In this document: piece by piece, positions 5,103 through 43,818 of the stretch
Numbering within the stretch: position 1 is the stretch's first letter
Layout of the letters: the number at the start of each line of letters is the position of its first letter
DNA from: Abditibacteriaceae bacterium
GTDB lineage: Bacteria; Armatimonadota; Abditibacteriia; Abditibacteriales; Abditibacteriaceae
Assembly: GCA_031425655.1 (NCBI GenBank)
Contig: JANPJS010000298.1
Coordinates: forward strand, 1-43,959
Direction of reading: 5' to 3'
DNA length: 43,959 bases
Notes under the pieces: generated by a model
What the model was told of the DNA's origin: nothing
What the model saw: only the letters and a program-made list of their open reading frames with translations
Database searches by the model: none
Program-made: the position numbers and the translations under genes

Positions 5103-5270
5103 GAGGGTGTAAACAAAGTCGTGGATTGTGTCATTCCGAGCGCAGCCGAGGAATCTTTTAGCACGGCAGCCGCGAGATTTCTCCACCCTGCCCAGAGGGC
5201 GCCCGCTCGTTCCTCGCTGCGGTCGAAATGACACTCTCGCGGAACTTTCCAGCACTTTGTTTACACCCTC
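5103..5270. mobile_element. 168-bp MITE with IS5-family (IS1031-group-like) ends
   Basis: Perfect 17-bp terminal inverted repeats GAGGGTGTAAACAAAGT (5103-5119) and ACTTTGTTTACACCCTC (5254-5270). Flanked by a 3-bp TCA duplication (5100-5102, 5271-5273). Confidence 0.8.
5187..5205 (+). repeat. GCCCAGAGGGC hairpin module, copy 1
   Basis: CCTGCCCAGAGGGCGCCCG inside a GTCATT-type REP within the MITE. Confidence 0.9.
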
Positions 5271-5329
5271 TCAGAATGACAGCGCTTCTTGAATTTGCCT
5301 GCCCAACACACTCCACTGCGTAAGGTGAA

Positions 5330-6445
5330 TTATAAGCTCGCGCGGTATTTTTCGTAATCGCCGGTGTAATATTCGACGCGCACTTTTTTGAATTCCTTCG
5401 TCGAAAACAGCAAAGCGCGGTCGGTGATGCCGGTTTCGCGTTCGATGGCGTCCACGATTTCGAGACAATCGCCTTTTTTGCGGCCATGAACCATCGTGAA
5501 AATCGAATACGGCCAATCGGGATAAGTCGGGCGCTGATAACAATGCGAAACCGCAGAAAACGCCGCCATTTTGGCCCCGACTTCGGCGCAGCGCTCTTCG
5601 GGCACTTCCCAGACGGCCATGGCGTTGGAAATGTAGCCGGCATCGCGGTGATGCATGACGGCGGAAAAACGCCGTAATAGCTTCGCTTCCTGCAATCGCG
5701 CAGCGCTCATGAAAAGCTGTCCGGTCGTGATGCCCAACTCCTCGGCCCACGCATCGAAAGGACGCGCTTCCAAAGCCAAATCTTTTTGCAGAATGCGCAC
5801 GAGTTCCTGATCTTCGGGCGACGGCGTCGGGAAAACCTCTATTTTGCTCCACGAGTGCTTGACTTCGCTTTTGCGCAGCAAATCGGCTTCGCCGCTCATG
5901 TCCAGCACCACGCCGATTTTGAACAATTTCAAGGTCGGCAGCAGCCACGTTTTTTCGGCGCCGGTCATGGCGTGCAATTCGTCCACGTCGCGCTGCAAAT
6001 CGCCCGACGGCGGAACCGCGACGGTAAACCACAAATTATAAGGATGATTGCGCTCGTAGTTGTGCGACACGCCCGGATGGCGATTGATAATATCAGCCGC
6101 TTCTTGAATCCGTTCGGGCGCCACGCGCATGGCGACCAGAGAAGTGCGATAACCCAGGCGGCGCGAATCGAAAATCGCCGAAATCTGGCGCAGCACATGA
6201 AGTTCTTTGGCTTTGCGCAGGCTGGCCAAAACTTCGTCTTCGCTTTGGCCAAGTTGCTCGCCGATGGCCGCGTAAGGCCGTTCAACAAGCGGGAAATCGC
6301 TCTGAATAATGTTGAGAACAGCGCGATCGTCTTCGGTGATGGCGGCTTTGCGCTCGCGCGCCGAAATGCGCTTTTGCTCGCCGCTTTCAAAAATATCTTC
6401 GGGATTGGTTAAGGTTTCGACGGCGGATTCATTTTCGACAGTCAT
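5330..6445 (-). CDS. ahbAB: Fused siroheme decarboxylase (AhbA-AhbB / NirDL-like, two Lrp/AsnC-like modules)
   Basis: IQSDFPLVERPY, PGVSHNYER..YNLWFT, VSHCYQRPTYPDWPYSIFTMVHG and LFSTKEFKK motifs. Confidence 0.88.
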   Translation of the reverse strand: MTVENESAVETLTNPEDIFESGEQKRISARERKAAITEDDRAVLNIIQSDFPLVERPYAAIGEQLGQSEDEVLASLRKAKELHVLRQISAIFDSRRLGYRTSLVAMRVAPERIQEAADIINRHPGVSHNYERNHPYNLWFTVAVPPSGDLQRDVDELHAMTGAEKTWLLPTLKLFKIGVVLDMSGEADLLRKSEVKHSWSKIEVFPTPSPEDQELVRILQKDLALEARPFDAWAEELGITTGQLFMSAARLQEAKLLRRFSAVMHHRDAGYISNAMAVWEVPEERCAEVGAKMAAFSAVSHCYQRPTYPDWPYSIFTMVHGRKKGDCLEIVDAIERETGITDRALLFSTKEFKKVRVEYYTGDYEKYRASL

Positions 6446-7650
6446 TTTAAAAGTTCCTTTACGGCTTCGGTCATCGCCTCGGCGCCGATGAAAAGCGCGG
6501 TTTCGTCAATGTTGAATTTCGGATGATGGTGCGGATAAACCGCGCCGATGGCTTCGTTGCGCCCGCCCACGAAAAAGTAGCAGCCGGGGACTTGTTGCAA
6601 AACCAGCGACATATCTTCGGCGCCCATCGTCGGCTCAAATTCGACCACGTTTTCGACTCCGACGACGCGCTCAAAAGCCGGACGCACACGTTCGACAATG
6701 GCCGCGTCGTTTACAGTCGCCGGATAGTCGCGCTGATAATTGAATTCACCAGTCGCGCCGAAAACCGGCGGCAATTCTTCGACGATTTCGCGGCAGCGCC
6801 GCTCTAAAAGCGCGCGCACTGTTTCGTCGAAAGTTCGCACCGTGCCTTCGAGATGCGCTTCGCCGGGAATGACGTTGAAGGCGCCGCCCGCGAAAACTTT
6901 GCCGATAGTCACGACGCCGGCATCCAGCGGTTTTACGTTGCGCGAAATCGTGGTTTGCAGCGCCAGCACGACTTGCGCGGCGATGACAATCGGGTCAACG
7001 GTTTGGTGAGGCATCGCGCCGTGTCCGCCTTTACCGATAATGCGCGCCGTAAAATGATCGGTGCTGGCCATGACCGGCCCGCTTTTTACGGCGATCTGTC
7101 CGACTTCGATTTCGCTCCAAATATGCAGCGCAAGCGCGAAATCGGGCTTCGGATCGCACAATAAGCCATCGTCAATCATGCCTTGCGCGCCGCCCAAACC
7201 TTCTTCGGCGGGCTGGAACATGAATTTGATGGTGCCGTGCAAATTGGCCTTGTCCTGCGCCAAAAGCCGCGCGACTGTCAATCCGGTCGCGGTGTGCGCG
7301 TCGTGCCCGCAGGCGTGCATCGTGCCGCTGCTCTGTGATTTCCAGGCCCAGTCGTTTTCTTCGAGAATCGGCAGCGCATCCATGTCGGCGCGCACCAAAA
7401 CGCAAGGCCCGTCAAAACCGCCGCGCAAGATGCCGACGACACCGGTTTTTCCAACGCCTTCTCGCACTTCCAGCCCCAGTTCACGCAACCGCGCCGCCAC
7501 GATGCTCGCCGTTCGCACTTCCTCGAAACCAAGTTCAGGATGCGCGTGAAAATCGCGGCGCAGCGCCACAATGTCCTCGTGCCACGCCAAGCCCAGCGAT
7601 GGCGCAACGGCGTTTTCAGAAAGCGGCGGCAGCGTGAAATTTTGCATCAT
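6442..7650 (-). CDS. M20D-family amidohydrolase
   Basis: RRDFHAHPELGFEE, RADMDALP, MHACGHDAH, FQPAEEG, GGHGAMPH and HHPKF motifs. Start placed at the ATG after an AGGGG RBS. Confidence 0.92.
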   Translation of the reverse strand: MMQNFTLPPLSENAVAPSLGLAWHEDIVALRRDFHAHPELGFEEVRTASIVAARLRELGLEVREGVGKTGVVGILRGGFDGPCVLVRADMDALPILEENDWAWKSQSSGTMHACGHDAHTATGLTVARLLAQDKANLHGTIKFMFQPAEEGLGGAQGMIDDGLLCDPKPDFALALHIWSEIEVGQIAVKSGPVMASTDHFTARIIGKGGHGAMPHQTVDPIVIAAQVVLALQTTISRNVKPLDAGVVTIGKVFAGGAFNVIPGEAHLEGTVRTFDETVRALLERRCREIVEELPPVFGATGEFNYQRDYPATVNDAAIVERVRPAFERVVGVENVVEFEPTMGAEDMSLVLQQVPGCYFFVGGRNEAIGAVYPHHHPKFNIDETALFIGAEAMTEAVKELLK

Positions 7651-7657
7651 TCGCCCC

Positions 7658-7712
7658 TTTTGAATGTTGAATCTTGTGCAATTCAAAATTCAAAATTCTC
7701 AATTCAAAATTC
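7658..7712. repeat. 7-mer (ATTCAAA) tandem/inverted intergenic repeat
   Basis: TTTTGAATGTTGAAT...ATTCAAAATTCAAAATTCTCAATTCAAAATT. Confidence 0.8.
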
Positions 7713-7713
7713 T

Positions 7714-8364
7714 TTAAAAAACGTCGCTGGCGCCGCGAATCAGGCCCATCATTTCCATGCGTGTCGGCAAGTCGAGAAACACGCCGCGCATGGCCGAAGT
7801 CGTCATTTTCGAGTGCTGCTTTTCAACGCCGCGCATCACCATGCACAAATGAATGCCCTCGGCCACAACGCCGACGCCCGCCGGATTCAGGTAGCATTCG
7901 AGAGCATCGGCAACCTGATTTGTCAAGCGTTCCTGCACCTGCAAACGGCGCGCGAACATATCCACAATGCGCGCGATTTTCGAGACGCCGATGATTTTGC
8001 CGTTGGGAATATACGCGACGTGGCACTTGCCGAAAAATGGCACCATATGATGCTCACAGAAGGAATAAAACTCGATGTCGCGCAGAATCACCATCTGGTT
8101 GTTGTCTTCGTGGAACACCGCGTTGTTGACGATTTCTTCCAACGATTGCTGGTAGCCCTGCGTGAAAAACCGCATGGCGGATGCGGCGCGATCCGGGGTT
8201 TTGAGCAGGCCTTCGCGCGCCGGGTCTTCGCCTATGTCTTGAAGAATTTGCCGATACAAATCGGCCATGTTGTCCGTGCCGACAAATTCTTCCTCCATGT
8301 TTTGTCCGGTTGCGCGGTTTGGGTTTTCACCGGACGGCGCTTCAATATCGTGTTCTAAGCTCAT
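7714..8364 (-). CDS. folE: GTP cyclohydrolase I
   Basis: [31 protein letters not shown] and HLCMVMRGV motifs. Confidence 0.97.
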
Positions 8365-9179
8365 GCTTCCACCTCGAAGAAATTTTTCTGTGTTTCGTGC
8401 AGTCCGACGCGCGCCAGACGGTGGCCTTCGTGTTCCAATCGGGCGCGCAAAACATCGAAAATCACGCGCGCGAAATTTTCGCTGGTCGGAATGAGGGTTT
8501 CAAACTCCGGGCAATCTTCGTTGAGATGACGATGGTCGAAGCGCTCGAAAATCTCTTCTTCGACGATGCTGTCCAACGTCCACGGCGCGATTAAGAAGCC
8601 GGTTTGCGCGTCGGGCGTGCCTTCGATTGTCACTTCCAGCCCGTAATTGTGGCCGTGCCCGGCGGGGTTGCTGCATTTGCCGTAAAGCGCCATGTTTTGC
8701 GCATCGTCGAGTTGCGGCGAACACAAACGATGCGCGGCGGCGAATTCGTAACAACGAGTTAATCGCATAAAATCGGGGGTTTTCTCCACGCGCAGACGGC
8801 TCGAAAGTTCCAGCGCCAGCTTGATTAAACGCCCGTTGCTTTGCTGCTTGGGCAGGCGCGTCCACAAAAATTCTACTATGTTTTCGACGGTGGGCCGCGC
8901 GGCGCGGAACTCGTCCAAGTCGCAATCGAGCATCGCGCCATCGAGTGGAGCTATGGCTTCGGCCAGCAGCGGCTTGATGTCGGATAAGTTGGCGATCATG
9001 CCGTCGTTTTCGCCGGGTTCGCCTTCGTAAAACGCGAAAATCATGCAATCGTGCCCGTGCGGGCGCGCCAGATGACGAAAAGTGGCGAGGTTTTTCGCTT
9101 CGTCCCAATCGGGATGGTTCAAGTGGCGCCCAATGGAAAAATAGGCACGCCGCGCCAGTTTGACGCTTTGTTTATTCAT
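8361..9179 (-). CDS. Tandem-domain 6-pyruvoyl/6-carboxy-tetrahydropterin synthase (PTPS/QueD family)
   Basis: C-terminal domain has [25 protein letters not shown] and PTSEN. N-terminal domain is degenerate (RPHGHDC, PTVEN). Overlaps folE. Confidence 0.88.
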
Positions 9180-10035
9180 TTTCGTAAACCTGTCCGAGCG
9201 CGGCGGGCGAGCGCGTTTTTCCGGCGAATCCGGCCAATGTCAGCAGCGTGACAAGGTAGGGTAGGGCTAAAAACAGCGGCGCGTAACCCGAACCAAACGA
9301 GGCTTGCAGCGAAAATTGTGCGCCTTCCGCTGCGCCAAACAGCAACGCCGCGCCGACCGCGCCCAACGGATTCCAGCGTCCGAAAATCACAATCGCCAGT
9401 GCGATGAAGCCGCGCCCCGCCGTCATGTTTTCCGCGAAAGAATGGGTGTGCGACATCGAAAGAAACGCGCCCGCGGCGCCGCACAGCGCGCCGTTGGCCA
9501 AAGTTGCCAACCATCGCACGCCGCGCACATTGACGCCTGCGCTGTCGGCGGCAGCCGGCTGTTCTCCGACCGCGCGCAGTTGCAATCCGGCGCGGGTGCG
9601 GCGCAGCATCCACCACAAAATCAGCGCCAACAACGCTCCGCCAACGGCAAAAGGCATTTCCGGCAGCGCGGGCGCTTCGTAGTTGCCGTGTAATGTAGAT
9701 AATCTTCGGTGAAACACGCCGGTCAGGCCCAACGCGCAAAGATTAAGCCCCGTTCCGGCCACGATGGCGTCGGCGCGCAGAGTGAGCACCAAAAATGCGA
9801 ACAACGCTGCGAAACCGATTCCGGCGCCCATCGCGGCCAATAATCCCAGCGGCGCATGGCCCGAAGCGAACGAAGCCGCCGCTCCGGCCCACGCCCCGCT
9901 TAGCATCATGCCTTCGAGTCCGATGTTCAGCACGCCGGCTCGCTCGCCGATAAGCTCGCCCAACGCCGCCAGCAGCAGCGGCGAGGCGAGCGCCAACGCG
10001 GTGAACAGCCATTGCCACGCGATTTCGGATGTCAT
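9172..10035 (-). CDS. Nucleoside/sugar ABC transporter permease (NupC/YufQ-like)
   Basis: GERAGVLNIGLEG, LRAVGEQP.AADSAG, GRGFIALA and LPY motifs. Start trimmed to ATG 10035, below the REP. Confidence 0.92.
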   Translation of the reverse strand: MTSEIAWQWLFTALALASPLLLAALGELIGERAGVLNIGLEGMMLSGAWAGAAASFASGHAPLGLLAAMGAGIGFAALFAFLVLTLRADAIVAGTGLNLCALGLTGVFHRRLSTLHGNYEAPALPEMPFAVGGALLALILWWMLRRTRAGLQLRAVGEQPAAADSAGVNVRGVRWLATLANGALCGAAGAFLSMSHTHSFAENMTAGRGFIALAIVIFGRWNPLGAVGAALLFGAAEGAQFSLQASFGSGYAPLFLALPYLVTLLTLAGFAGKTRSPAALGQVYENE

Positions 10036-10045
10036 TTGTGAAATC

Positions 10046-10128
10046 TTAAACACAAAGACACGAAGACACAAAGGAAAATCGGTGTTCTTTGTGTCTTCGT
10101 GTCGGGTGCCCTCTGGGCAGGATGTTTA
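10046..10128. repeat. 8-mer-unit inverted repeat (ACAAAGAC family) carrying hairpin module copy 2 (10103-10121, minus strand)
   Basis: TTAAACACAAAGACACGAAGACACAAAG...CTTTGTGTCTTCGTGTC[GGGTGCCCTCTGGGCAGGA]TGTTTAA. Confidence 0.85.
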
Positions 10129-10710
10129 ATCGGCAGAAATGTTTTCCAATTCTCGAACGGTGCATTCGAGTTCGACGAGCAAGGCGCGCAGACCGGGCGG
10201 GTCGGAATCGGTCGTTACGCTGCGATATTTGTCGCACAAAGCGCGGTAATACCAAAGGGTTTCGCGCCCGCCGCTGAAGCGATTCCACAACGCTTCGCCG
10301 TGCGTGCGATAATCGGCCAAAATCGCGCGCGAATTGTGCAATTTATCGGATGACGAAACGAGGCGAACCGATGGCGAAGCCTCGTCTAAATGCGCGATGT
10401 AAATCTCTTTGCGAGCGCGCCACGGCGGTTTGGGAATCGTTTCGGCATCGGTGCAGCCGTCCACGATTTGCGCCACGCGTTCGCCGAAGCGGGCGCGAAT
10501 GTCCTGCCGTCGCGCATCGCCGCCCTGATCCTCGACGGCGTCGTGCAAAAGCGCGGCGATAGCCTCGTCTTCGTCGCCGCCATGCTCCAAAACCAGCGAG
10601 GCCACGCCCATCAAATGCGAAATATAGGGAATCCCGGAGCCTTTGCGGATTTGCGCGGCGTGAATGCGCGTGGCGTAAACGAAAGCGTCTTCAAATCGCT
10701 GGGTCAGCAT
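10126..10710 (-). CDS. HD-domain hydrolase, small alarmone hydrolase/Mesh1-like
   Basis: HAAQIRKGSGIPYISH, AALLHDAVED and DKLHN motifs of the RSH HD_4 family. True start is the ATG at 10710. Confidence 0.88.
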   Translation of the reverse strand: MLTQRFEDAFVYATRIHAAQIRKGSGIPYISHLMGVASLVLEHGGDEDEAIAALLHDAVEDQGGDARRQDIRARFGERVAQIVDGCTDAETIPKPPWRARKEIYIAHLDEASPSVRLVSSSDKLHNSRAILADYRTHGEALWNRFSGGRETLWYYRALCDKYRSVTTDSDPPGLRALLVELECTVRELENISAD

Positions 10711-10712
10711 GA

Positions 10713-11726
10713 TTAATCCTTTGGCCGCAGGCGTGGTAAAAGCGCGGCGCTGCAAACTAAAACTCCGACGATAATTGAGACCGTGACCGAGGGAATGCCC
10801 GCGCTGCGTTCCATCGCGCCGCCGCCCGCGCCCAACATTCCAAAAAGCAGAGCGGCGGGCAGCACGCCCAGCGGATTCAAATCGCCCAGTAGCGCGACGG
10901 CAATCGCGGTGAAGCCGTAGCCGGGCGGCGTTAATCCCAATTGCCTGGTGGCGCCCGCGATTTCCATCGCGCCGCCCAATCCGGCCAACGCGCCGCAGAG
11001 CATCGTCGTCCATTGAATCTGCGCGTCCGTATTGATGCCCGCCGCCCGCGCCGCGATTGGGTTGGTGCCCGCCGCGCGAGCCAAAAAGCCGCGCTCACTG
11101 CGAAACAAAAACCACCAGCAGCCAAACGCGCAAGCGAGAGCTAAAAACAGCCCGGCGTGCAAATTGGAGTCGCGCACAATCGGCGAAAGCTGCGCGGCGG
11201 GCGGCATGACATCGCTTTGCGGCTGCGCTCCGGCACTTTCCAAAAGCCAGCCGCGCGGCTCATTTGGCGCGGCGGGAATTTGCAGCGAAAACTCCACGAT
11301 GCGAATCGCCACATAGTTGAGCATGATGGTCGTGATGATTTCCGGTGCGCCGCGACGCAATTTCATCCAACCCGCGAGGCCAGCCCACGCTCCGCCGGCA
11401 ATCGCGCCGCCGATAAGCACAAAAGGCCACGGCAGATGCGCTTTGGCGCCCAAACCCGCCGCCGCTAACGCGCCCATTAAGAACTGCCCTTCGGCGCCGA
11501 TGTTGAAAAAACCGGCGCGAAACGCCAGCGCCACGCTCAGCCCGGTCATTATCAGCGGGATGGTTTTGGCCAGCGATTCGGTCGCGTTGCGCGGCGTGCC
11601 GATAGCGCCGCGCAGAATCGCCTGCCCCGCCAGAATTGGGTCTTGCCCCGCCAAACGCACTACGAGGGCGCAAACGACAAGAGCGATTATCGGCAGCAAA
11701 ATCAGCGGGAGGATTCGAGAACGCAT
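10713..11726 (-). CDS. Nucleoside/sugar ABC transporter permease (NupB/YufP-like)
   Basis: FNIGAEGQ, EIITTIMLNY and GYGFTAIAVALLG motifs. Start trimmed to ATG 11726. Confidence 0.92.
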   Translation of the reverse strand: MRSRILPLILLPIIALVVCALVVRLAGQDPILAGQAILRGAIGTPRNATESLAKTIPLIMTGLSVALAFRAGFFNIGAEGQFLMGALAAAGLGAKAHLPWPFVLIGGAIAGGAWAGLAGWMKLRRGAPEIITTIMLNYVAIRIVEFSLQIPAAPNEPRGWLLESAGAQPQSDVMPPAAQLSPIVRDSNLHAGLFLALACAFGCWWFLFRSERGFLARAAGTNPIAARAAGINTDAQIQWTTMLCGALAGLGGAMEIAGATRQLGLTPPGYGFTAIAVALLGDLNPLGVLPAALLFGMLGAGGGAMERSAGIPSVTVSIIVGVLVCSAALLPRLRPKD

Positions 11727-11729
11727 GGA

Positions 11730-11804
11730 AGTGACGAGTGACGAGTGACGAGTGACGAGTGACGAATGGTGAGACTCCGCACTCGTCACTCCACACTCGT
11801 CACT
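11730..11804. repeat. 7-mer (GTGACGA) tandem/inverted intergenic repeat
   Basis: (GTGACGA)x5 followed by inverted CTCGTCACT copies. Confidence 0.85.
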
Positions 11805-13278
11805 CCGTTGCGCCTCCCATCAACTTGCCGATTTCATCGCGCGACGTGCCGGCGGGCAGCAGGTTTTCGTCGGGCAATAATCGGCCTTCATAAAGCACGC
11901 CGATGCGGTCGCTGAGGTGCAAAATTTCGTCGAGATCGGTGGAAATGAGCAGAATGGGCGCGCCGGCATCGGCGGCAGCACGCAACTGCTGATGCACGAA
12001 TTGCCCCGCGCCGATGTCAAGCCCGCGCGCCGGGTCAGCAGCCACCACCGCCGATGGCTCGAAGCTCAGCGCCCGCGCGACGACCACTTTTTGTTGATTG
12101 CCGCCCGATAACCGGGCTGCGAGTGCGCGCTCACCAGTTGCGGACGCGCGCACATCGAATTTCACCATTAAATCGCGTGTTAGTTGACGGATGGCAGGCC
12201 AATCGAGGCCAAGCGGCTTGCGAAACCTTGCGCGTGGCCTCGGATGCAGCGCGATGTTTTCGGCCAAATCGAAGGGCAAAATCAAACCGGTGCTTTGCCG
12301 GTCAGCGGGAATCAAACCGAGAACGCCAGTCGCCGCTTTGCCGTTTTCATCCACGCGAAAAGTGCCTGAATCGGGCTTTTGTAGGCCGCTGAGAAGCTCC
12401 ATGAGTTCGCGCTGTCCGTTGCCGTCAACGCCCGCGAGTCCGACGATTTCGCCGCCGTTAATCGTCAGCGAAAACTCGCGCAAGGCGCCGCACGACAGGT
12501 TTTCGATACGAAGCCGTCGCGTGCCGATTGGCGTAACCGGCGCGGTGCGCGGCGATGTTTTATCGAGGTCGCGCCCGACCATCAGCGAGGCGAGTTCGCC
12601 GATGTTGGTCGTTTTCGTTTCTCGTTCGCCGGTGACTTGGCCGTGGCGCAAAACCACGACGCGGTCACATAATTCCATGACTTCATGCAATTTATGCGAA
12701 ACGAAAACCACGCCGCGTCCTTGTTCGCGCAGGCGCCGCACCACGGCGATCAGTTCACCGACTTCGGCGGGCGTGAGATTAGCGGTTGGCTCATCTAAAA
12801 GCAGCAGGCGCGCCTCGCCGTCGCCCGCGAAAAGCGCTTTAAGGATTTCCACGCGCTGCTTTTCGCCGACGCTGAGGTCTTCGATGCGCGCATGGCCGTT
12901 GATTTTCCAGCCCAGCGAAGCCGCCCGTTTTTCCGCCTGTTTCGCCCAAAAATCGGGCTGAAACGCGCCGCGCCCGGCGTGCAAGGCCAGATTTTCGGCG
13001 ACTGTGAAGACCGGCACCAGATGAAAATGCTGATGCACCACACCGATGCCGCGCTGCGTCGCCTCGCGCGGCGATTTGAGGCTCATCGGCGCGCCGTCCC
13101 AAAGTATCTCTCCGCTCGAAGCCGCTAATTCGCCGCCGAGAATTTTCAGCAGCGTGCTTTTGCCGGCTCCGTTTTCGCCGAGCAGCCCGACGATTTCGCC
13201 GCCGCTGACGCCGAAGTTAACGCTGTCCAGCGCGCGAAAATTACCGAATTGCCGAGACAAATTGCGGACTTGGAGCAT
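11800..13278 (-). CDS. Nucleoside/sugar ABC transporter ATPase with two nucleotide-binding domains (NupA/YufO-like)
   Basis: GENGAGKST, LSVGEKQRVEI, LLLLDEPT and LSGGNQQK motifs. Confidence 0.95.
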   Translation of the reverse strand: MLQVRNLSRQFGNFRALDSVNFGVSGGEIVGLLGENGAGKSTLLKILGGELAASSGEILWDGAPMSLKSPREATQRGIGVVHQHFHLVPVFTVAENLALHAGRGAFQPDFWAKQAEKRAASLGWKINGHARIEDLSVGEKQRVEILKALFAGDGEARLLLLDEPTANLTPAEVGELIAVVRRLREQGRGVVFVSHKLHEVMELCDRVVVLRHGQVTGERETKTTNIGELASLMVGRDLDKTSPRTAPVTPIGTRRLRIENLSCGALREFSLTINGGEIVGLAGVDGNGQRELMELLSGLQKPDSGTFRVDENGKAATGVLGLIPADRQSTGLILPFDLAENIALHPRPRARFRKPLGLDWPAIRQLTRDLMVKFDVRASATGERALAARLSGGNQQKVVVARALSFEPSAVVAADPARGLDIGAGQFVHQQLRAAADAGAPILLISTDLDEILHLSDRIGVLYEGRLLPDENLLPAGTSRDEIGKLMGGATE

Positions 13279-13286
13279 AGGACATA

Positions 13287-13353
13287 TCTCTCGCAAAGAC
13301 GCCAAGTCGCAAAATTTTTAAATCTCTTTGCGGCTTGGCGTCTTTGCGAGAGA
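13287..13353. repeat. 8-mer-unit inverted repeat (GCAAAGAC family)
   Basis: TCTCTCGCAAAGACGCCAAGTCGCAAA...TTTGCGGCTTGGCGTCTTTGCGAGAGA. Related copies at 20461 and 43774. Confidence 0.85.
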
Positions 13354-13354
13354 A

Positions 13355-14380: not shown

Positions 14381-14394
14381 GATTCCCCTTTTTC

Positions 14395-14513
14395 AATGGA
14401 ACACGGATTTACCTGCCCAGAGGGCGCCCGAAACGGCCACAGATTTTCGCGGATTAATTCAAAGAAAAATCCGTGAGAATCCGTGGCCGTTTCCGTGAAA
14501 TGCGTGTTCCATT
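14395..14513. repeat. CACGGATT-family inverted repeat carrying hairpin module copy 3 (14411-14429)
   Basis: AATGGAACACGGATTT[ACCTGCCCAGAGGGCGCCC]GAAACGGCCACAGATT...AATCCGTGGCCGTTTCCGTGAAATGCGTGTTCCATT. Confidence 0.85.
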
Positions 14514-14523
14514 TTAAACAATA

Positions 14524-15789: not shown

Positions 15790-15796
15790 GCGGCGA

Positions 15797-16726: not shown

Positions 16727-16730
16727 CGGC

Positions 16731-16820
16731 GGGAGCTGGGGGTTAGGGGCTGGGGGCTGGGTCAAGGTGAGAAAACGTGTAACTTTTCTCCCCAGTCCCT
16801 AACCCCCAGTCCCCAGCCCC
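16731..16820. repeat. 7-mer (GGGGCTG-type) tandem/inverted intergenic repeat
   Basis: GGGAGCTGGGGGTTAGGGGCTGGGGGCTGGG...CCCAGTCCCTAACCCCCAGTCCCCAGCCCC. Confidence 0.8.
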
Positions 16821-16824
16821 TGCC

Positions 16825-18060: not shown

Positions 18061-18183
18061 GAGAAAAGCGTCTCCTGTCCTTCAAACTGTTTGCCGATTT
18101 TAACACAGGGCCACATGGCACGCTATCCGCGCGCGGGCCAAAACGCTGTTCGCCGCACTCAATTCGCGTATCGGGAAAATTCT

Positions 18184-20457: not shown

Positions 20458-20460
20458 ATT

Positions 20461-20581
20461 TGTCTCTCGCAAAGACGCAAAGACGCAAAGAAATAAAGAA
20501 AAGCTGATGTTTTTAGGCTGAATTCTCTCATCTTTGACCATCTCTTTTTTTCTTGGCGGCTTTGCGGCTTTGCGAGAGACA
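20461..20581. repeat. 8-mer-unit inverted repeat (GCAAAGAC family) between convergent genes
   Basis: TGTCTCTCGCAAAGACGCAAAGACGCAAAGAAA...TTTCTTGGCGGCTTTGCGGCTTTGCGAGAGACA. Confidence 0.85.
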
Positions 20582-20594
20582 AAAACGAGAAAAA

Positions 20595-23802: not shown

Positions 23803-23860
23803 TTTTGAGTTGTAAGTTGCAGTCGGTTAACTCAAAACTCACAATTCAAAACTCAAAACT
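23801..23860. repeat. 7-mer (ACTCAAA) tandem/inverted intergenic repeat
   Basis: AGTTTTGAGTTGTAAGTT...AACTCAAAACTCACAATTCAAAACTCAAAACT. Confidence 0.8.
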
Positions 23861-23861
23861 C

Positions 23862-24278
23862 ATGAATAATGCAATTTCCGGCTGCGGCTTTCATCATGTG
23901 GCGATTCGCACCGCCAATTGGGAAAAATCGCTGCAATTTTACACGCAAGGCCTCGGTTTTAACGTTCGTATCGAATGGGGCGAGGCTCCGCGTCGGGCTG
24001 TCATGCTCGATACCGGCGACGGCAACTATTTAGAGATTTTCGAGCGCGAACCGCTGGCCAACGGCCCGTCCGACGATTCGTCCGCGATTTTGCACTTCGC
24101 TTTGCGCGCCGCCGATGTCGAAGCGGCGACAGAGATTGCTCGCGCTGCCGGCGCCGTCGTGACTTTAGAGCCGAAAGTTCCCGAACCGTTTACCAATCTG
24201 GGACTGAAAACGAAGATTTCTTTCGTCAAAGGGCCGGACGGCGAAATCGTCGAATTCTTTGAAAGCGACTCATTGTAA
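23862..24278 (+). CDS. VOC/glyoxalase family protein
   Basis: FHHVAI, FY..GLG, LEIF, LHFAL and GPDGEIVEF motifs. Start trimmed to ATG 23862. Confidence 0.92.
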   Translation: MNNAISGCGFHHVAIRTANWEKSLQFYTQGLGFNVRIEWGEAPRRAVMLDTGDGNYLEIFEREPLANGPSDDSSAILHFALRAADVEAATEIARAAGAVVTLEPKVPEPFTNLGLKTKISFVKGPDGEIVEFFESDSL

Positions 24279-31955: not shown

Positions 31956-31972
31956 TTTTATCTCCGTATGAG

Positions 31973-33154: not shown

Positions 33155-33200
33155 AGCAACACCCGTGAAATTGGGCGGCAGACAAATCCTCTGGCGCTTT

Positions 33201-34238: not shown

Positions 34239-34387
34239 AAGGAACCTTTCGGGTCGTGGAGATTGGAGCGTGGCTCATTTTACCTGCTCGCAAGCGTCCC
34301 GTCGTGCCTGAAAGCGGGCAAAAAGGTATAATTTTCGGGGCGAAACCCAACTTTAACTACGGGCCGCTATGCGCCGAGGAGATTGCT

Positions 34388-36394
34388 TTGCTGTCGCGTT
34401 CGATTCCCAATTGCCGTCGTTTTTTCAAATTTTCAATGCTGTTGTTTTGCGCCTTCGCACCCGCTGCGCCTTCGGCGAACGCGGCGGTCGCGGTTGTGGA
34501 CGATTTCGAGGATGGCGTCGCGGGTTGGAGCACCAACGACAAAGTCAAGTTCGATAATCCCTCGCAGCCGGCTTCGCTTGTCAACGTGGTCGCGGTGCCC
34601 GCCGAGCCGGGCGGTGCACGCGGCTCGAAAGGCGCGGCCTTGTTCACTTTCAAAGCCGCCAACGCTTCGTGGGCCTCGGCCTCGTTTAAAGTGGACGGCA
34701 AACAATGGGCGCAAATCGGCGCGCAAAAATTGTCGTTTTGGCTGGGTGCGGGAGGCGAATCGCAAGGCTTCGATGTCGTTTTGCGCGGGCGCTACGGCGG
34801 CCCCGACGGCTCGCCCAAAGAAGAAAAGTTCACGCTGAAAAAGCGCGTTGACCTCGACCGCCGTCCGTGGCGCTTGGTTTCGATTCCTCTTTCGGATTTT
34901 CGCAGTCCAAACGGCGCCGCGCCATCGCGTTTATCCACGGTTTATCTGCTGCAAATCGTGCAAACCGGCGATTGGGATGCGCGCTTTTTCAATCTCGACG
35001 ACATTCGCATCGAAGGCAGCGGTGTCCCGCTTGTGCAAACCGTGAAAGCGCCGGGCGAAGTGGTTCCGCCGCCGGTTGCTCCAACCGCACCACTATCGTC
35101 CGGCGTGACGAATGTCAGCGCCGACTTTTTGAAAAAAGAAGGCCGCGTGCGCAGCGCGGGCAACGTGTCCATCGGCATGACGTGGCCCGACACCAACGGC
35201 ATCGAAGTGCTGCCTTTGGAAAACAAAGCCTACCGCGACACTCTTGCGACCTTGAAACCGCGCATCGTGCGCCTTGATGCCGGCAGCCTCGCGGCGCTGA
35301 TGGATTCGTCCAAACCCTCGTTCGATTTCACCAAGCTCATCACGGCGGCGCGCCAGACACGGGCGTTAGGCTTCGAGCCAATGGTGGCGCTGACCAATCC
35401 CGTCGCGTGGGGTTTGGACGAGCGCGCCTACGCGTCTTTTGCTTCGCAGGCGGCCAAAGCCATCAATACCGGGCCGGTGCCGCCGGTGCGGCTTTTCGAG
35501 GTCGCCGTCGGCGCGCCCGGCAGCGCAGCGGGCGAAGACGACACGCTGGCGCTCAGCTATTACAACAGCGCCTACGATGCGCTGAAAGCGTTTTCCAAAA
35601 ACTTCTGGGTCGGCGGCATCACCAGCAGCGGGGGCCGCGCCGGAACCATGAGCAAACTGCTCGGCGGGGCCAGAGGCCTTGATTTCTTGGCCGTCAGCTT
35701 TTACGGCGCGCCTCATAATTCCGGCACCAACATCCCGACCAGCGACCAGATTTTGCGCAGCGCCGGGACAATAGCGAGCCTGCGCTACGCCGCCGCCCAA
35801 CTCGATAAATCACGCTTCGCCAAAGCGCCGATTTTCGTGACACAGGCCAACCTTTTGGCGCCCGGCAGCGACGGCGACCAGCCCGGCGAGGCGCGCCCGA
35901 CGCAAATCGTGGCCGCCGCGTGGTGGGCCACCTTTATCGGCGCCGGCTCGCGCGTGGCCGACCAAATTTTTCATAACGATTCTTCTAATGCCGCGTGGGG
36001 ACTTTTAGATGGACAAGCCGCGATACCGCGCGCTTATCCGGCCTATTACGCGTTGTGGCTGTGGAACACCTTTTTGCCGACCGGCAGCGAGCGTGTCGCG
36101 GCTACCGCTTCGACGCCGGCTATCGCAGTCACGGCAGTTAACCCGCCGATGGCCAATGGGCAACCGATTCACACTTTGCTGCTAACGAACCTGACGCCTT
36201 TCGAGCAAACCGTGAAAGTCTCCATTCGCGGCTTCCCGGTTTTGCGCGAAGCGCGCGTCCGTGTCTTCGATGATTTAGCCGCCGCGCGGGCGCTCAATAC
36301 GCCGCAGATTTTGCCGAAAAGCCCGTTTCAGACTTTGGTTCTCAAGCCGAACGCCGTCGCGGTTTTGCAGTTCGTCGAGCCGCCGAAAAAATAA
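34388..36394 (+). CDS. Secreted protein with a CBM11-like N-terminal domain, Pro-rich linker and GH39-like barrel, apparently lacking the catalytic Glu residues
   Basis: GAGGAG RBS then TTG at 34388, with TATAAT at 34327. VDDFE...WRLVSIPLSDF...LDDIRI (CBM11-like). FEVAVG and IFVTQAN at the expected catalytic positions. Confidence 0.6.
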   Translation: MLSRSIPNCRRFFKFSMLLFCAFAPAAPSANAAVAVVDDFEDGVAGWSTNDKVKFDNPSQPASLVNVVAVPAEPGGARGSKGAALFTFKAANASWASASFKVDGKQWAQIGAQKLSFWLGAGGESQGFDVVLRGRYGGPDGSPKEEKFTLKKRVDLDRRPWRLVSIPLSDFRSPNGAAPSRLSTVYLLQIVQTGDWDARFFNLDDIRIEGSGVPLVQTVKAPGEVVPPPVAPTAPLSSGVTNVSADFLKKEGRVRSAGNVSIGMTWPDTNGIEVLPLENKAYRDTLATLKPRIVRLDAGSLAALMDSSKPSFDFTKLITAARQTRALGFEPMVALTNPVAWGLDERAYASFASQAAKAINTGPVPPVRLFEVAVGAPGSAAGEDDTLALSYYNSAYDALKAFSKNFWVGGITSSGGRAGTMSKLLGGARGLDFLAVSFYGAPHNSGTNIPTSDQILRSAGTIASLRYAAAQLDKSRFAKAPIFVTQANLLAPGSDGDQPGEARPTQIVAAAWWATFIGAGSRVADQIFHNDSSNAAWGLLDGQAAIPRAYPAYYALWLWNTFLPTGSERVAATASTPAIAVTAVNPPMANGQPIHTLLLTNLTPFEQTVKVSIRGFPVLREARVRVFDDLAAARALNTPQILPKSPFQTLVLKPNAVAVLQFVEPPKK

Positions 36395-36884
36395 ACCGCC
36401 GATGCATCCGCCCAGAGGGCACGCCGATAAACGCCGATGAATAGCGATTAAGGCCGATTAGATGAGATCACGCGGGGCATCATCGGGGCGTCTTATGATG
36501 TGTCGAATGCGCTCGGCAGCGGCTTTCTGGAAAAGGTTTACGAGAACGCATTGTCACATGAACTTCGCAAGCGAGGTTTGGAAGTCAGGCAGCAACAGCC
36601 GATTAACGTTTGGTATGACGGGATTTGCGTGGGCGCTTATGCCGCAGATTTGCTGGTTGAAGGTTGCGTCATCGTCGAATTGAAGGCGATAAAGGCATTG
36701 GACGACGTTCATCTGGCGCCGTGCTTGAACTATTTGAAAGCCACCGAATTGCGCGTTTGCCTGCTTATCAACTTCGGCAGCCCGCGCGTGGACATGAAGC
36801 GCATCGTCCCTATTTTTTGAATGCCGGAAATCTAAAAATATCGGCGTTTATCGGGTGCCCTCTGGGCGGATTTATCGGCGGTTT
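36393..36884. mobile_element. Cassette bounded by ~45-bp inverted repeats (CGCCGATAAA units, hairpin module copies 4 and 5) enclosing a GxxExxY gene
   Basis: Left arm 36393-36438 and right arm 36840-36884 are near-perfect reverse complements. Confidence 0.6.
36437..36820 (+). pseudogene. GxxExxY (PD-(D/E)XK-like) protein with a premature stop
   Basis: MNSD*GRLDEITRGIIGASYDVSNALGSGFLEKVYENAL...ADLLVE..VIVELKA. In-frame TAA at 36449-36451. Conserved AQ...NYL reads AP...NYL. Confidence 0.8.
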
Positions 36885-36890
36885 CGCCCC

Positions 36891-36919
36891 TTGCTGTGAA
36901 GGGCGAAAATTGTTATAAT
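36891..36919 (+). promoter_or_regulatory. Sigma70-type promoter for the gyrB operon
   Basis: TTGCTG-17 bp-TATAAT with an extended TG at 36911-36912. Confidence 0.65.
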
Positions 36920-37055
36920 TTAGAACAGTGAAATCCACTTTTTCCCCGCTTGTTTTCCCCGCGTTCTGGTCGTAGTTTTCCGGTTCTCATCATAGACCGA
37001 ATTGCGTCTGTCGGCGGGAATTTACGAGCAGTTTTACTTGATGTCTGAAGTCTGA

Positions 37056-39271
<2,216 letters not shown>

Positions 39272-39272
<1 letters not shown>

Positions 39273-39592
39273 TGCTCGTTCACAGCGATTATCTGGGTGC
39301 CGATGTAGAACTGAGCGAAGAGCGTGAGGTTCATATCGGCGCCCGGCATCCCGATCTGCCGCCGCGTTATCGCTCGCAAATGCTGGATACCATCGGCGAT
39401 CCAGACGAGATACGCCGCAGTTCGCGGGCTGACAATACCAAGCTGTTTTGTCGCTGGTTCGACGACGTGCGAGGCGGAAAATACGTTGTGGTAGTCGTTG
39501 TGAGCCGCAAGACGCCCAAGCGTCATTGGGTCATCACTTCTTACATGACGCTGCGATTGGCGGAAGGAGAGATCGAATGGAGCCGAAGCTAA
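39272..39592 (+). CDS. Putative BECR/PBECR-fold (RelE/BrnT-like) RNase toxin
   Basis: ER..HI..RHP, DTI.DPDEI..S and VVVVV....WVITSY. TGATG-coupled to gyrB. Overlaps a DUF2283-like gene. Confidence 0.7.
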
Positions 39593-39816
39593 GTTTCAAC
39601 TACGACCGTGAGGCGGACATCCTCTACATTGACGTGCGTCCGCCTTACGCTGACCAGGAATCGCAGGAAATGGGCGATGGCGTGGTGGCGCGTTTGAGTC
39701 CGCAGACTGGCGACGTGGAGAATTTGGAAGTAATGTTCTTTTCCACGCGTCTGCTGCGCTCTGAGCTTTTCGAGTTGCCGATTGCGGCGGATTTCCATTT
39801 GGTGAAAGCGGCGTGA
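39577..39816 (+). CDS. DUF2283-family putative antitoxin
   Basis: MEPKLSFNYDREADILYI...EMGDGVVARL..TGDVENLEV. GGAG RBS upstream. Confidence 0.8.
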   Translation: MEPKLSFNYDREADILYIDVRPPYADQESQEMGDGVVARLSPQTGDVENLEVMFFSTRLLRSELFELPIAADFHLVKAA

Positions 39817-40097
39817 ACGACTTGGAAACATTGCCTTGTAGCGAGTGTGGCGGGACAACGCAGGCCAAAATGGTCTCCCAGCAATTTGAGCGCGAAGGCA
39901 CGGTAGTCGAAGTGTCCGGAGTGCGCGCTTTAGTTTGCCGGAACTGCGGCGAGACCTATTTTTTGCCGGGCGGCGCGCAGTCTGTAGCGCAGGCGGCGAA
40001 TAGCTTGTTTGAAGTAGCGCGGCGCAACCAGCAGCACAAAGGCAAAGTGGCCGGCGAGGTGAAAAGTGTGTCGAAACGTGCCAAAGCTATTGCGTAA
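39813..40097 (+). CDS. YgiT/MqsA-type zinc-finger protein without an HTH
   Basis: CSECGG...V.ALVCRNCGETY. GTGA-coupled to the previous gene. Confidence 0.85.
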   Translation: MNDLETLPCSECGGTTQAKMVSQQFEREGTVVEVSGVRALVCRNCGETYFLPGGAQSVAQAANSLFEVARRNQQHKGKVAGEVKSVSKRAKAIA

Positions 40098-40112
40098 CTA
40101 AGAACTGAATCA

Positions 40113-40448
40113 ATGCTTGTTGTCTGTGATTATCTGAACGGGGTTGTGGAAATGCCGGACGAAAGGTCGTATGAGATTTGCTTTCGTTGGCCTCAGCCGC
40201 GCTGCCACGCAGATGTCATTGACACGATTGTTGATCCTGACGAAGTGCGAATTGATTCGCAGGTTGTTTATGGCGACGGGCATGTTTTGATTGGAAAGAT
40301 TTATCTCTTTTGTCGTTGGTTCGACGAGATAAACGATGGGAGTCATGTCGTAGCCGCTATCTGCGAAGGCGGACTTCATGAATACCGTTATATCAATTCC
40401 TTCCATACCAAAGAGCTGACAACAGGCGAACGCCGATGGAGTCGCTGA
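40113..40448 (+). CDS. Diverged paralog of the 39272-39592 toxin
   Basis: Shares MLV..DYL, DTI.DPDE.R, LFCRWFD and GE..WSR, but lacks the HI..RH histidines. Confidence 0.7.
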   Translation: MLVVCDYLNGVVEMPDERSYEICFRWPQPRCHADVIDTIVDPDEVRIDSQVVYGDGHVLIGKIYLFCRWFDEINDGSHVVAAICEGGLHEYRYINSFHTKELTTGERRWSR

Positions 40449-40526
40449 GAATATCTGAGTTGACGGAGAAAGCGGGAGAATAAACGAGCTTGATTGCCCG
40501 TGAATTATTTCGACGTGAGGTGCCCG

Positions 40527-40793
40527 ATGCGTGCTGTAACGATTGATTGGCCGGATGACGTGGAAGCAGAGTATCAGTTTTCCGATGTCGAACTGGCGCG
40601 GCATATTCGCCTGATGGCGGCGTTGAAAATGTTCGAGCTGGGCGAGATTTCATCGGGGAAAGCCGCAGAGTTCGCCGGTCTGTCGCGCGTCGAGTTTTTC
40701 GATGCCTGCGGACGTTATAAAGTGCCGGCGGCGAATTATGCGGCAGATGCGCTGATAACCGATTTGCAAACGGCGCGCGAGGCCGCGCGGTGA
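40527..40793 (+). CDS. UPF0175-family putative antitoxin
   Basis: RLMAALKMFELGEISSGKAAEFAGLSRVEF motif. GAGG RBS, ATG at 40527. Confidence 0.85.
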   Translation: MRAVTIDWPDDVEAEYQFSDVELARHIRLMAALKMFELGEISSGKAAEFAGLSRVEFFDACGRYKVPAANYAADALITDLQTAREAAR

Positions 40794-41272
40794 TTGTCGC
40801 CGATGCAGGGCCGCTCATCGCTCTGGCGAAGGTTGACGCGCTTGCACTGATCCAATCACTTTTTGAATTTGTCAGCGTGCCTCAATCCGTTTGGGATGAG
40901 GTTATGGCAAAAAGCGGCGTGGAAGTTGAACGCCTGACGGCAGCCTCAGACGACTTTCTGCGTGTTGAACCGAATGTGGTCTTAGCAGAACCGCTTGCGA
41001 AAACCGTGCGGGGCTTGGGTGCCGGGGAACAACAAGCAATCGCGCTGGCGCTGACACAGGCAAGCGTGCTTTTGGCCGATGATTGGAAAGCTCGGCGGGT
41101 GGCTCAGGCTCTTGGAGTCAGTGTAACCGGCACGGCAGGAGTTCTTTTGTTGGCAAAGGAAAAGGGACTGCTTGACAAGGTGCGGCCACATCTTGAGGCA
41201 ATGCGCCGTGCGGGATATTGGCTTTCGGACGATTTTGTCGAAATGGCGGCCCGCCTCGCAGGGGAAAGTTGA
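40790..41272 (+). CDS. DUF3368 / PIN-domain (VapC-like) toxin
   Basis: IVADAGPLIAL, VP.SV..E, LGAGEQQAIALA, LLADD..ARR, GTAGVL and GYWLS motifs. Confidence 0.88.
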   Translation: MIVADAGPLIALAKVDALALIQSLFEFVSVPQSVWDEVMAKSGVEVERLTAASDDFLRVEPNVVLAEPLAKTVRGLGAGEQQAIALALTQASVLLADDWKARRVAQALGVSVTGTAGVLLLAKEKGLLDKVRPHLEAMRRAGYWLSDDFVEMAARLAGES

Positions 41273-41282
41273 AAGGGAAAAT

Positions 41283-43769
41283 ATGAGTTTGATTGCCCGT
41301 GAAGTTATTCCGATGCGCATCGAAGACGAGATGCGCATCAGTTACACGCGTTACGCGATGAGCGTCATCGTGGGACGCGCGCTGCCGGATGCCCGCGATG
41401 GGTTGAAGCCCGTCCATCGTCGCATTTTGTATGCGATGTTCGACCAGAATATGCTGCCCGACCGGCGCCGCGAAAAGTGCGCGTCGGCGGTCGGCGAAGT
41501 GCTGAAAAAGTATCACCCGCACGGCGATATGAGCGTGTATGATGCGCTGGTGCGCATGGCGCAGGATTTTTCGATGCGCTTTCCGCTCGTGGACGGGCAG
41601 GGCAACTTCGGCAGCGTGGACGGCGACAGCGCCGCTGCGTATCGCTACACCGAAGCGCGTCTGGCCTCCCTTGCGATGGAACTGCTGCGCGACATTGACA
41701 TGGACACGGTGGATTTCGTGCCCAATTTCAGCGAAAGCACGACCGAACCCAGCGTCTTGCCGGCGGTTTACCCGAATATGCTGGTCAACGGTAGTTCGGG
41801 CATCGCGGTCGGCATGGCGACGAATATTCCGCCGCATAATCTCGGCGAAGTCTGCGATGCCGTGGCGATTCTCGTCGAGAACCCGAACGCGACTGTCGCC
41901 GATTTGATGGAAGTCTGTCCCGGCCCCGATTTTCCGACGGCGGGCTTGATTTTGGGCAAAAAGGGCATCCATTCGGCGTATCACACCGGGCGAGGCAGCG
42001 TCATCATGCAGGCGCGGGCGACTATCGAGCCGTTCGATAACGGGCGCCAGGCGATTATCGTCACGGAGCTTCCGTATCAGGTTAACAAGGCGACGCTGAT
42101 TGAAAATATCGCCGCGCTGCACCGCGAAAAGAAGGTCGAAGGCATCAGCGAACTGCGCGACGAAAGCGACCGGACGGGAATGCGGATGGTTATCGAACTC
42201 AAGCGCGATGCCAACCCAAACGTGGTGCTGAATTACCTTTACAAGCACACCACGCTGCGCACCAGCTTCGGCATTAATAACTTGTCCATCGTGGACGGGC
42301 AGCCGCGCGTGCTGACACTGAAACAGTGCTTGGAATACTTCATTGCGCACCGTCAGGAAGTCATTCGTCGGCGCAGCAAGTTTCAACTGACCAAAGCCGA
42401 GGCACGGGCGCATATTCTCGAAGGTCTGCGCGCGATTTTGGCCTCGATTGACGACGTGATTGCCCTGATTCGTTCCAGCGACTCGCGCGAACACGCTCGC
42501 ACGCGCTTAATGAACGAAGGCGTGCCGGCTTATCACGACGGCAAAAAAGCCACGACCGGCGATTTAATAACGCTGTCGGAACTGCAAGCCAACGCCGTGT
42601 TGGATATGCGTTTGGGCCAGCTTACGCAGCTCGACCGCATGAAAATTGATGACGAATACGCCGATTTGATTAAAGAAATCGAGCGTCTGCGCGGCATTTT
42701 GGAAAGCGAAGCCAAAGTGCGCCAGATCATCAAGAACGACATGGCGCGCATCAAAAAAGAATACGCCGACGCGCGTCGCACGCAGCTTGTCGAAACCGAA
42801 GCGCAAGACCTCAAACCCGAAGATTTGATTGCCGAGGAAGACGTGGTTGTGACGATCACGCGCGACGGCTACATCAAAAAGCTGCCCAAAGACACTTATC
42901 GGATGCAGGGTCGCGGCGGCAAGGGCATCATCGGCCTGACGAAGAAGGAAGAAGATGCTGTCGAGCATCTTTTCGTTTGCACGACGCACCATTTGCTGCT
43001 GGTTTTCACCAATCGCGGGCGGGTTTTCCAGATCAAAACCTACGAAGTGCCTTCGGCCAGCCGCCAGTCGCGCGGCACGCCGATTGTCAATCTGCTCAAC
43101 GTCGAACGCGGCGAACAAGTGACGGCGGTGCTGAATATCGCGGACTTTTCCGACAGCAAATACTTGTTCATGGTCACGCGCGAAGGCACCGTGAAAAAGA
43201 CGGCTCTGGTTGATTACGCCAACAAGCGTCAGGGCGGACTGATTGCCATCAATTTGGAAGGCAAAGATGAGCTTCGCTTCGTTTTCCAGACCGACGGTCA
43301 CAAGGAAATCATTCTCGCATCGCGTCAGGGCATGAGCATTCGCTTCAACGAAAGCAACGTGCGCTCGACGGGCCGCAACACCATGGGCGTAACCGGAATG
43401 CGTTTCAAGCACAAGAAGGATTACATCGTCGGCGCAGCGGTCGCGGCGCCGCAGGATCACGTTTTGACGATTAGCGAAACCGGATTGGGCAAGCGCAGCT
43501 TGGTCGAAGATTACCGCGTGCAGGCGCGCGGCGGCACCGGCGTGATGACCTTGAAAGTGACGGAAAAAACCGGCGAACTCGTCAACTTGCAACTGGTGAC
43601 CGAAGGCGAAGAATTGATGATTATCACCAAAAAAGGCGTGATAATTCGCCAAAGCATTGATACGATTCGTGAAACCGGACGCATCGCGCAGGGCGTGAAA
43701 CTCATTCGCTTAGGCGAAGGCGATCAAGTCGCCGCCGTCGCCAAGATTCTTCGAGAAGAGGAAGAGTAA
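41283..43769 (+). CDS. gyrA: DNA gyrase subunit A
   Basis: [37 protein letters not shown] (catalytic Tyr), GyrA-box QGRGGKG and beta-pinwheel repeats. Start trimmed to ATG 41283. Confidence 0.96.
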
Positions 43770-43773
43770 TTTT

Positions 43774-43818
43774 TGTCTCTCGTCCTGCCCAGAGGGCACC
43801 CGACGCCAAGTCGCCAAG
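43774..43818. repeat. GCAAAGAC-family repeat arm carrying hairpin module copy 6 (43783-43801)
   Basis: TGTCTCTCG[TCCTGCCCAGAGGGCACCC]GACGCCAAGTCGCCAAG. Confidence 0.85.

Follow-up and report, generated by a model that had tools for sequence, protein, structure and literature searches.

What places one and the same tiny hairpin inside several unrelated repeat families of a single genome? The question is raised by a 43,959-nt contig of an Abditibacteriaceae bacterium (JANPJS010000298.1, assembly GCA_031425655.1), analyzed here at its full length and called the window. An earlier note on this DNA had pointed to six copies of a hairpin module in the window, all between genes and inside other palindromic repeats, each thought to replace 4 nt of its host. 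Searching with the 11-mer hairpin core, we recovered all six, at 5190, 10108(-), 14415, 36410, 36857(-), and 43787, compared with a mean of 0.05 in shuffled sequence, where none of 100 shuffles reached six; allowing one mismatch yielded no further core in the window. All six do lie between genes and within hairpin repeats. Across the genome, we found that the module takes over the position of a C-NNNN pentamer, with a loss of four bases and with T, C, A, or G read where the C had stood.

Exchange of a pentamer for a hairpin

Flank conservation across the genome copies gives the unit N-CCTGCCC-ARA-GGGC-R-CCCG. The main form is N-CCTGCCCARAGGGCRCCCG, 20 nt long with its last G included, and we refer to the initial N as the junction base. 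The wider family follows N-C(C)(T)-RCCC-loop-GGGY-N-CCCG, spans 18–24 nt, and has the ends NCC and CCCG. The 20-mer adds 15 nt net and holds no stop codon in any frame.

Empty counterparts of filled sites were sought by comparing 194 unique flank pairs (12+12 nt) with intergenic DNA of the source genome (5.98 Mb, a fragmented assembly of 327 contigs), allowing 0–12 nt between the flanks. An empty sister was found for 175 of the 194 pairs, with a best empty length of 5 nt in 135 of the 175 and, among close matches with at most one flank mismatch, in 108 of 124. The replaced pentamer begins with C in all 135 cases and in 108/108 of the close-match set, and 95 of these 108 filled sites no longer hold C at the first replaced position. 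After clustering, C came first at 39 of 39 independent host positions, no other position was fixed, and the hosts are 35%–39% C; a further count backs the fixed 5-nt loss and the C rule at 171 of 173. Pentamers such as CTTGC, CAACC, CCTCC, and CGCCT thus give way to a module that ends in G. That final G is the module's own, being written in 89 of the 96 sites whose target had another base there, and so the loss of 4 nt proposed earlier has to be corrected to 5. Target bases are seldom kept at the module ends: 6 of 96 informative sites retain +5, 4 of 123 retain +3, and 0 of 141 retain +2. The earlier view that the module replaces sequence without duplicating its target was borne out, as the replaced pentamer equals a module end in 0/135. 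About a dozen 6-nt empties in runs of C, most of them from one host lineage, fit a 5-nt loss minus the junction base, and sister forms of 23–24 nt with longer loops obey the same rule where empties exist. For pooled non-self loci in other genomes, an empty-like match was found at 62 of 113 sites, 43 of the 62 being 5 nt long and 33 of these 43 starting with C; the matches include many loose ones made between genomes, and among the close ones C came first in 11 of 11.

Within the window, the copy at 36407 is irregular and reads as an insertion or as a module with one extra G (Table 1). The original sequence of the host at 5186, earlier described as not visible, has a 5-nt candidate, CTGCG, elsewhere in the genome, tied with a 10-nt one. 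In the neighboring empty repeat, the pentamer CTTGC is the one replaced in 13 unique filled sites of the GTCATT-type family, and the repeat that hosts the copy at 10103 keeps its partner arm empty at ~10053–10057 (+).

What stands in the place of the C differs from event to event. Per independent event, we counted T22 C14 A11 G2 in the source genome (n = 49) and T33 A16 C12 G2 in other genomes (n = 63, after six probable chance matches were dropped from 80 listed GTDB loci), and the base differs even within one variant and one host. Junction A depends on context: it occurred in 11 of 24 events after a pyrimidine and 0 of 25 after a purine in the source genome (p = 9e-5), and in 15 of 40 versus 1 of 23 in other genomes (p = 0.005). 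The spectrum and the pyrimidine dependence of A suggest that the base is not inherited but made at each event, as it would be by a polymerase crossing an unreadable joint.

Table 1. Module copies, empty sister repeats, and the enclosed gene in the window
Feature	Position	Strand	Remarks
Empty GTCATT-type hairpin repeat	5035..5104		CTTGC at 5046-5050
Module, 20 nt, junction base C	5186..5205	+	In 3' arm of GTCATT-type hairpin repeat (~5130-5232)
Module, 20 nt, junction base T	10103..10122	-	CAAAG replaced in ACACAAAG-type repeat
Empty TCTCTCG-CAAAG-ACGCC repeat pair	13287..13353		CAAAG at 13294-13298; sister of filled 43783 site
Module, 20 nt, junction base A	14411..14430	+	CACGG or CACAG replaced in GGAACACGG-type repeat
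Irregular short-type module (TCCGCCC...)	36407..36426	+	15 nt inserted before intact CGCCG unit, or module plus one extra G
GxxExxY PD-(D/E)XK nuclease gene (PF13366)	36437..36820	+	In-frame stop at codon 5; between module-bearing repeat arms (36393-36884)
Module, 19-nt short type (T-CCGCCC...)	36852..36870	-	5 nt replaced in AACCGCCGAT-type repeat
Module, 20 nt, junction base T	43783..43802	+	CAAAG replaced; after gyrA

Two further features of the window concern its repeats. A 27-nt inverted pair at 5099–5274 brackets the repeat holding copy 5186 and cuts off the neighboring GTCATT repeat, and is possibly a miniature element inserted there. Heptamer tandem arrays of AATTCAA and GAGTGAC types occur at 7673–7712, 11722–11812, and 23829–23868, between or overlapping gene ends.

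Hosts, genes, and genomes that carry the module

The core occurs 231 times in the source genome, the next commonest loop, AAA, accounting for 67 copies, and the 19-mer occurs 211 times exactly, 59 times with one mismatch, and 52 times with two. Of 273 copies, our own gene finder placed 265 outside genes. A repeated flank accompanies 213 of 229 copies, compared with 33% of random intergenic C sites. Its hosts include hairpin arms around GxxExxY and DUF559 genes, a Y1-flanking family, GTCATT-type repeats, and heptamer arrays. Clustering separated 39 host positions unrelated to one another, and position and variant together gave at least 65 combinations. A single host can be struck at several positions. 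In GTCATT-type repeats, the module sits in the arm read from the tag and also in the complementary arm, contrary to the fixed orientation relative to the host arm suggested earlier. Decayed copies are present in the source genome. Copies nested within the module itself were not seen, only side-by-side copies at adjacent pentamers and insertion sequence (IS) insertions, and copies showed no bias for the transcription strand (63 versus 63). A general search for other such modules returned mainly the same family together with short GCTTCGC loop variants; in GGAACACGG-type repeats, this second, shorter loop variant stands in place of a few bases a short way upstream of the module at many sites.

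The hosts have features of their own. Eight of nine GxxExxY genes are flanked by a hairpin-repeat family of their own, which is also scattered over the genome, much as with RAYT or Ssn cassettes (contigs C215, C45, C54, C228, C298, C143, C260, and C126), and so are DUF559 genes (C144 and C244); our literature search found no description of such GxxExxY/DUF559 gene-between-hairpins cassettes. Heptamer arrays of the CCCTCAT type carry the module in frame inside enzyme genes (C150, C267, C51, C114, and C202), including aminotransferase-class, glycosyltransferase, and methionine-synthase-like genes.

The module also enters genes outside repeats. In two Calx-beta genes, it lies in frame, making the products five residues longer than their paralogues; both copies begin at the third base of an Asn codon, a base that is C in most paralogues. 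An ISAs1 gene of the source genome has 19 nt where its named orthologue has 5 nt, with protein motifs fixing the loss at 5 nt and a conserved Val codon placing C first on the module strand. Module copies shift the frame in ISAs1 and IS200 transposase genes, and in genome G012 an IS200 transposase is split by an 18-nt form fitting the same rule. A phage portal gene, where the module likewise lies in frame, has 20 versus 5 nt at two sites on related contigs, the empty alleles of the first including CGTGA and CGTCG (two types). The gene for tyrosyl-tRNA synthetase holds a near-match. The site-specific writing of a fixed mini-hairpin into unrelated repeats, as the earlier note had it, is supported as a process; the Calx-beta, portal, ISAs1, and IS200 copies remove its restriction to repeat stems.

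To gauge its breadth, we scanned GTDB with the 19-mer, finding at least 87 stretches, among the matches listed mostly from Abditibacteriaceae, Thermomicrobiales, Chloroflexia, and Herpetosiphonaceae, and in similar contexts. The 16-nt core reaches at least 15 copies in 11 of 121 genomes of Armatimonadota (three families) and at least 9 copies in 7 of 121 Chloroflexota genomes, with 0–2 per genome for the reversed-core control; G044 is the same genome as G003 and was counted once. Nine of ten other genomes of the same family carry the module, as do the single-contig chromosome of G011, with 37 copies, and five viral contigs; the one named plasmid searched held no copy. Genus g2 scored 0/11 for the first presence/absence profile, and those genomes carry a shorter sister form. 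At three window copies compared between contigs rather than reads, no filled/empty polymorphism was found.

The module is itself a target. Ten left and eight right ends of an IS110 element all interrupt it at the same point (18/18 junctions), in several hosts and with different junction bases (left or one-end contigs C15, C23, C58, C71, C97, C101, C154, C205, C248, and C302; other-end contigs C65, C66, C70, C88, C170, C189, C212, and C220). As assembled, the element consists of its ends and C-terminal part, and it encodes the PF02371 recombinase domain. In gene orientation, the target is GGGTGCC-CT-CTGGG, split at the CT core, and the non-coding end carries the guides GGGTGCCCT and CCCAGAG, which match both target halves. 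Judged by its sequence, the element would thus qualify as a bridge-RNA system, with PF02371, a short core, and guides for both halves; IS621 bridge RNAs share this guide layout (PMC11208160). Rfam gave no matches in the window or in the IS110 end. The junction pattern occurs in 1 of 27 genomes of the family, which suggests a visitor using the module as a safe and abundant target. The AAA loop variant corresponds to the IS110 target with the core-adjacent base coming from the IS donor end; speculatively, it is a trace of past IS visits, and AAA is also found in Chloroflexota. Other element ends break the module near its loop as well (C138:6796, C63:181, C281:17899, C235:80, C241:24614, C13:12494, and C109:21412), and more than one mobile element may use it.

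How the module might move

We tentatively favor the explanation that the module is a very small non-autonomous mobile element, akin to the small dispersed repeats (SDRs) of cyanobacteria, and moves as a folded single strand through an enzyme acting in trans. Existing copies would act as donors, because rare module variants recur in unrelated hosts, a template search with up to three mismatches found no master copy outside repeats, and the stem covaries (closing pair G-C in 263 copies, A-T in 16, and other in 5). The folded strand would be recognized by a small trans-acting strand-transfer enzyme, a Y1/HUH-like protein being the best of the candidates tested. This enzyme may pick a C:G pair and join the hairpin there by a link that polymerase cannot read, such as a lost or modified base; the next four bases would be removed, and replication or repair over the joint would fix a semi-random base. 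The module lands mainly in arms resembling repetitive extragenic palindromes (REPs) and in heptamer arrays, which multiply it passively, and also in genes. It is possible, though somewhat doubtful, that an undescribed enzyme common to Armatimonadota and Chloroflexota joins the hairpin at a cytosine or its paired G by a non-standard link, the four bases that follow being cut out. It would be a natural, precise 5-to-20-base writer, independent of homology, with a preference for DNA that is mobile or repetitive and with the capacity to lengthen proteins by five residues in frame.

Several observations weigh against this explanation. The best empty length is other than 5 nt at 40 of the 175 sites. 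A further empty allele at the first portal site, TCTTG, starts with T, and the empty allele at the second, GGCAG, is a counter-example to the C rule unless it has changed since. We saw no leading/lagging bias (66 versus 60), with a weak GC skew; for the replication-direction estimate, 20 samples of G011 gave no usable skew. The same few variants occur in two phyla, more uniform than free copy-of-copy drift suggests. IS200/IS605-type HUH strand transfer is not known to delete target bases or to scramble one. Finally, according to PMC4167244, E. coli bypass of abasic sites yields mostly T and one-base deletions, with other bases below 1%, a spectrum that fits the preference for T but not the frequent A and C, so that a plain abasic site fits in part only.

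None of the candidates tested was identified as the mover. Because the genomes are related and often incomplete, gene-presence counts are indicative only: Y1 genes occur in 22 of 25 module-rich genomes, but also in 6 of 10 module-poor ones, and are absent from three module-rich metagenome-assembled genomes. No core lies near any of the six Y1 loci of the source genome, and in other genomes 3 of 24 Y1 loci have a family member, inserted into IS ends, into an ISAs1 gene, or into a host repeat. The HUH/RAYT-type action suggested by the earlier note keeps its place as a candidate, with Y1 transposases as movers being compatible but unproven. One IS605-type element (TnpA and TnpB; L146, G045:C334) has a sister module in a hairpin at both ends, with differing loops.

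That no responsible enzyme is evident in the window had also been claimed. A GxxExxY nuclease gene does sit between the copies at 36407 and 36852; it is probably a host cassette rather than the mover. As a class, GxxExxY genes were rejected (present in 3 of 14 module-rich genomes and in 8 of 16 module-poor ones). Also rejected were four-helix-bundle proteins (none in G011), DUF559 (none in G017 or G019, and only a weak match in G011), and capture by Ku and non-homologous end joining (Ku in 0 of 21 module-rich genomes).

A rather unlikely alternative is a dedicated writer with a fixed template of its own, be it RNA, DNA, or protein, that acts at C:G pairs where mobile or repetitive DNA is exposed, the genomic copies being its products and not donors. 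It would account for a 16-nt core that is near-identical in two phyla and in which every one of the four A/G combinations at two positions recurs, and for the frequency of the module in mobile DNA (REP arms, ISAs1, IS200 and IS605 sequences, and phage genes). The template search speaks against it, as do the recurrence of minor variants in unrelated hosts and the covarying stem, and carriage on phage contigs can explain the identity across phyla.

Also unlikely, and somewhat more so, is an RNA intermediate, in which a reverse transcriptase (RT), in a target-primed reaction, copies a short RNA form at a nick in the target and adds one untemplated base at the template jump; such a route has reportedly been proposed for SDRs. 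Reactions of this type typically leave a context-dependent untemplated base and delete part of the target, and RVT_1 occurs in 14 of 18 module-rich genomes and in 8 of 17 module-poor ones. However, the RTs found are of mixed classes, and neither Pfam nor a custom profile detected an RT in the source assembly; on contig C156, a type XIII retron partner gene lies 58 bp from the contig end and the contig stops before the RT position, so the RT may be unassembled. G004 has a retron RT and no copies, whereas G014 has 75 copies and no match to the retron RT. Moreover, an untemplated base would not demand that the replaced base be C, and the lack of transcription-strand bias also tells against this route. 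Type XIII retron operons (long repeat protein, SWIM-BRCT protein, and RT) are common in the phylum, and their first gene is preceded by non-coding sequence that is conserved; as a template this region was rejected, since in six operons it has no match to the module. Two module copies lie in variable spacers before a retron RT gene.

That the IS110 element made or left the module, as an excision footprint or a self-made landing pad, is very improbable: all 18 junctions do fall within the module, but a split at the CT core with guides for both halves is the standard bridge-RNA layout (PMC11208160), the junction is far rarer in the family than the module, and the module's own ends share no core. 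More improbable still is a module devoid of mobility, its copies going back to a single ancient event, or a few, and multiplied by gene conversion and by amplification of the host repeats; many copies are clonal inside host families, with both arms of a repeat often filled, but the number of unrelated host positions and position-by-variant combinations is against it, and copies in unique genes and filled/empty phage orthologues refute it. A library or assembly artefact, which the fragmented assembly and the use of contigs in place of raw reads might suggest, is hardly credible given many independently deposited genomes, single-contig chromosomes, and phage contigs with the module, decayed copies, compensatory changes, an IS110 with guides for it, and a public contig, though possibly the source run itself, that covers 36000–38490 with 0 differences.

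Comparison with known systems

How elements of ~20 nt move has been an open question since the cyanobacterial SDRs were described. The scar of the present module is unusually informative: the loss is always of 5 nt, the C is obligatory, and the base that is scrambled depends on context, which together restrict the chemistry and offer a direct assay read-out. The module is a source of precise five-residue insertions and transposase knockouts, crosses phyla, rides on phage contigs, and has its own putatively RNA-guided parasite. Its enzyme, if found, would be a homology-free writer of short sequence. In a literature search that covered main texts and few subscription journals, we found no paper with its motif strings or concept.

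The closest known system is the SDRs; membership cannot be claimed, as taxon and self-nesting differ. Small dispersed repeats SDR1-8 of Nostocaceae were reportedly described by Elhai et al. in 2008. SDRs are ~21–27 nt long, lie precisely within other repeats (heptamer arrays and miniature elements), and have covarying stems, and some nest in their own copies. Both are structured modules of ~20 nt placed precisely within other repeats, with no mover known for either. The main form at 20 nt and the family at 18–24 nt overlap the SDR range, mostly just below it, and the module shares the embedding in other repeats, heptamer hosts included, and the fold with compensatory change. By contrast, nesting in its own copies was not seen, and its range is Abditibacteriaceae and Chloroflexota, whereas SDRs are confined to Nostocaceae according to PMC5861425 (Nostocaceae SDRs are also treated in PMC4390886). 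SDR5, given as 21 nt in PMC13756078, goes between bases 3 and 4 of HIP1 and is described as a precise insertion; a 2026 paper still lists its function as unknown. Here, a four-base deletion and a scrambled obligatory C replace precise insertion, a single target base replaces a target motif, and the module is also an IS110 target.

Like REP/REPIN-RAYT (PMC3116915) and SRM/NTS-Ssn (PMC11893778), the module is a short hairpin with hundreds of extragenic copies, whose probable mover is a small enzyme that acts in trans on single strands. The gene-between-hairpins layout recurs in its host repeats, which flank Y1, GxxExxY, and DUF559 genes. The module itself, however, flanks no gene of its own, invades many such families as well as ordinary genes, and is not the cognate repeat of a Y1 gene at any of the six source loci.

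Peel-and-paste elements of the IS200/IS605 group and their miniature derivatives insert by a fixed 4–5-nt target without loss. They resemble the module in lacking target duplication, in having a subterminal hairpin, and in choosing targets by base, but the module loses 4 nt and alters its one fixed base. DDE-type miniature inverted-repeat transposable elements differ in that the module ends, NCC and CCCG, are not terminal inverted repeats and no duplication is made, and retron-derived repeats differ in that the module does not match the resident retron upstream region. Targeting by IS110 parallels that of REPs by IS621-type elements (PMC11208160): the insertion point is a CT core, the target is a non-coding repeat present in abundance, and the element carries guides for both halves; the target here, unlike there, is not the REP itself but a micro-module parasitic on repeats.

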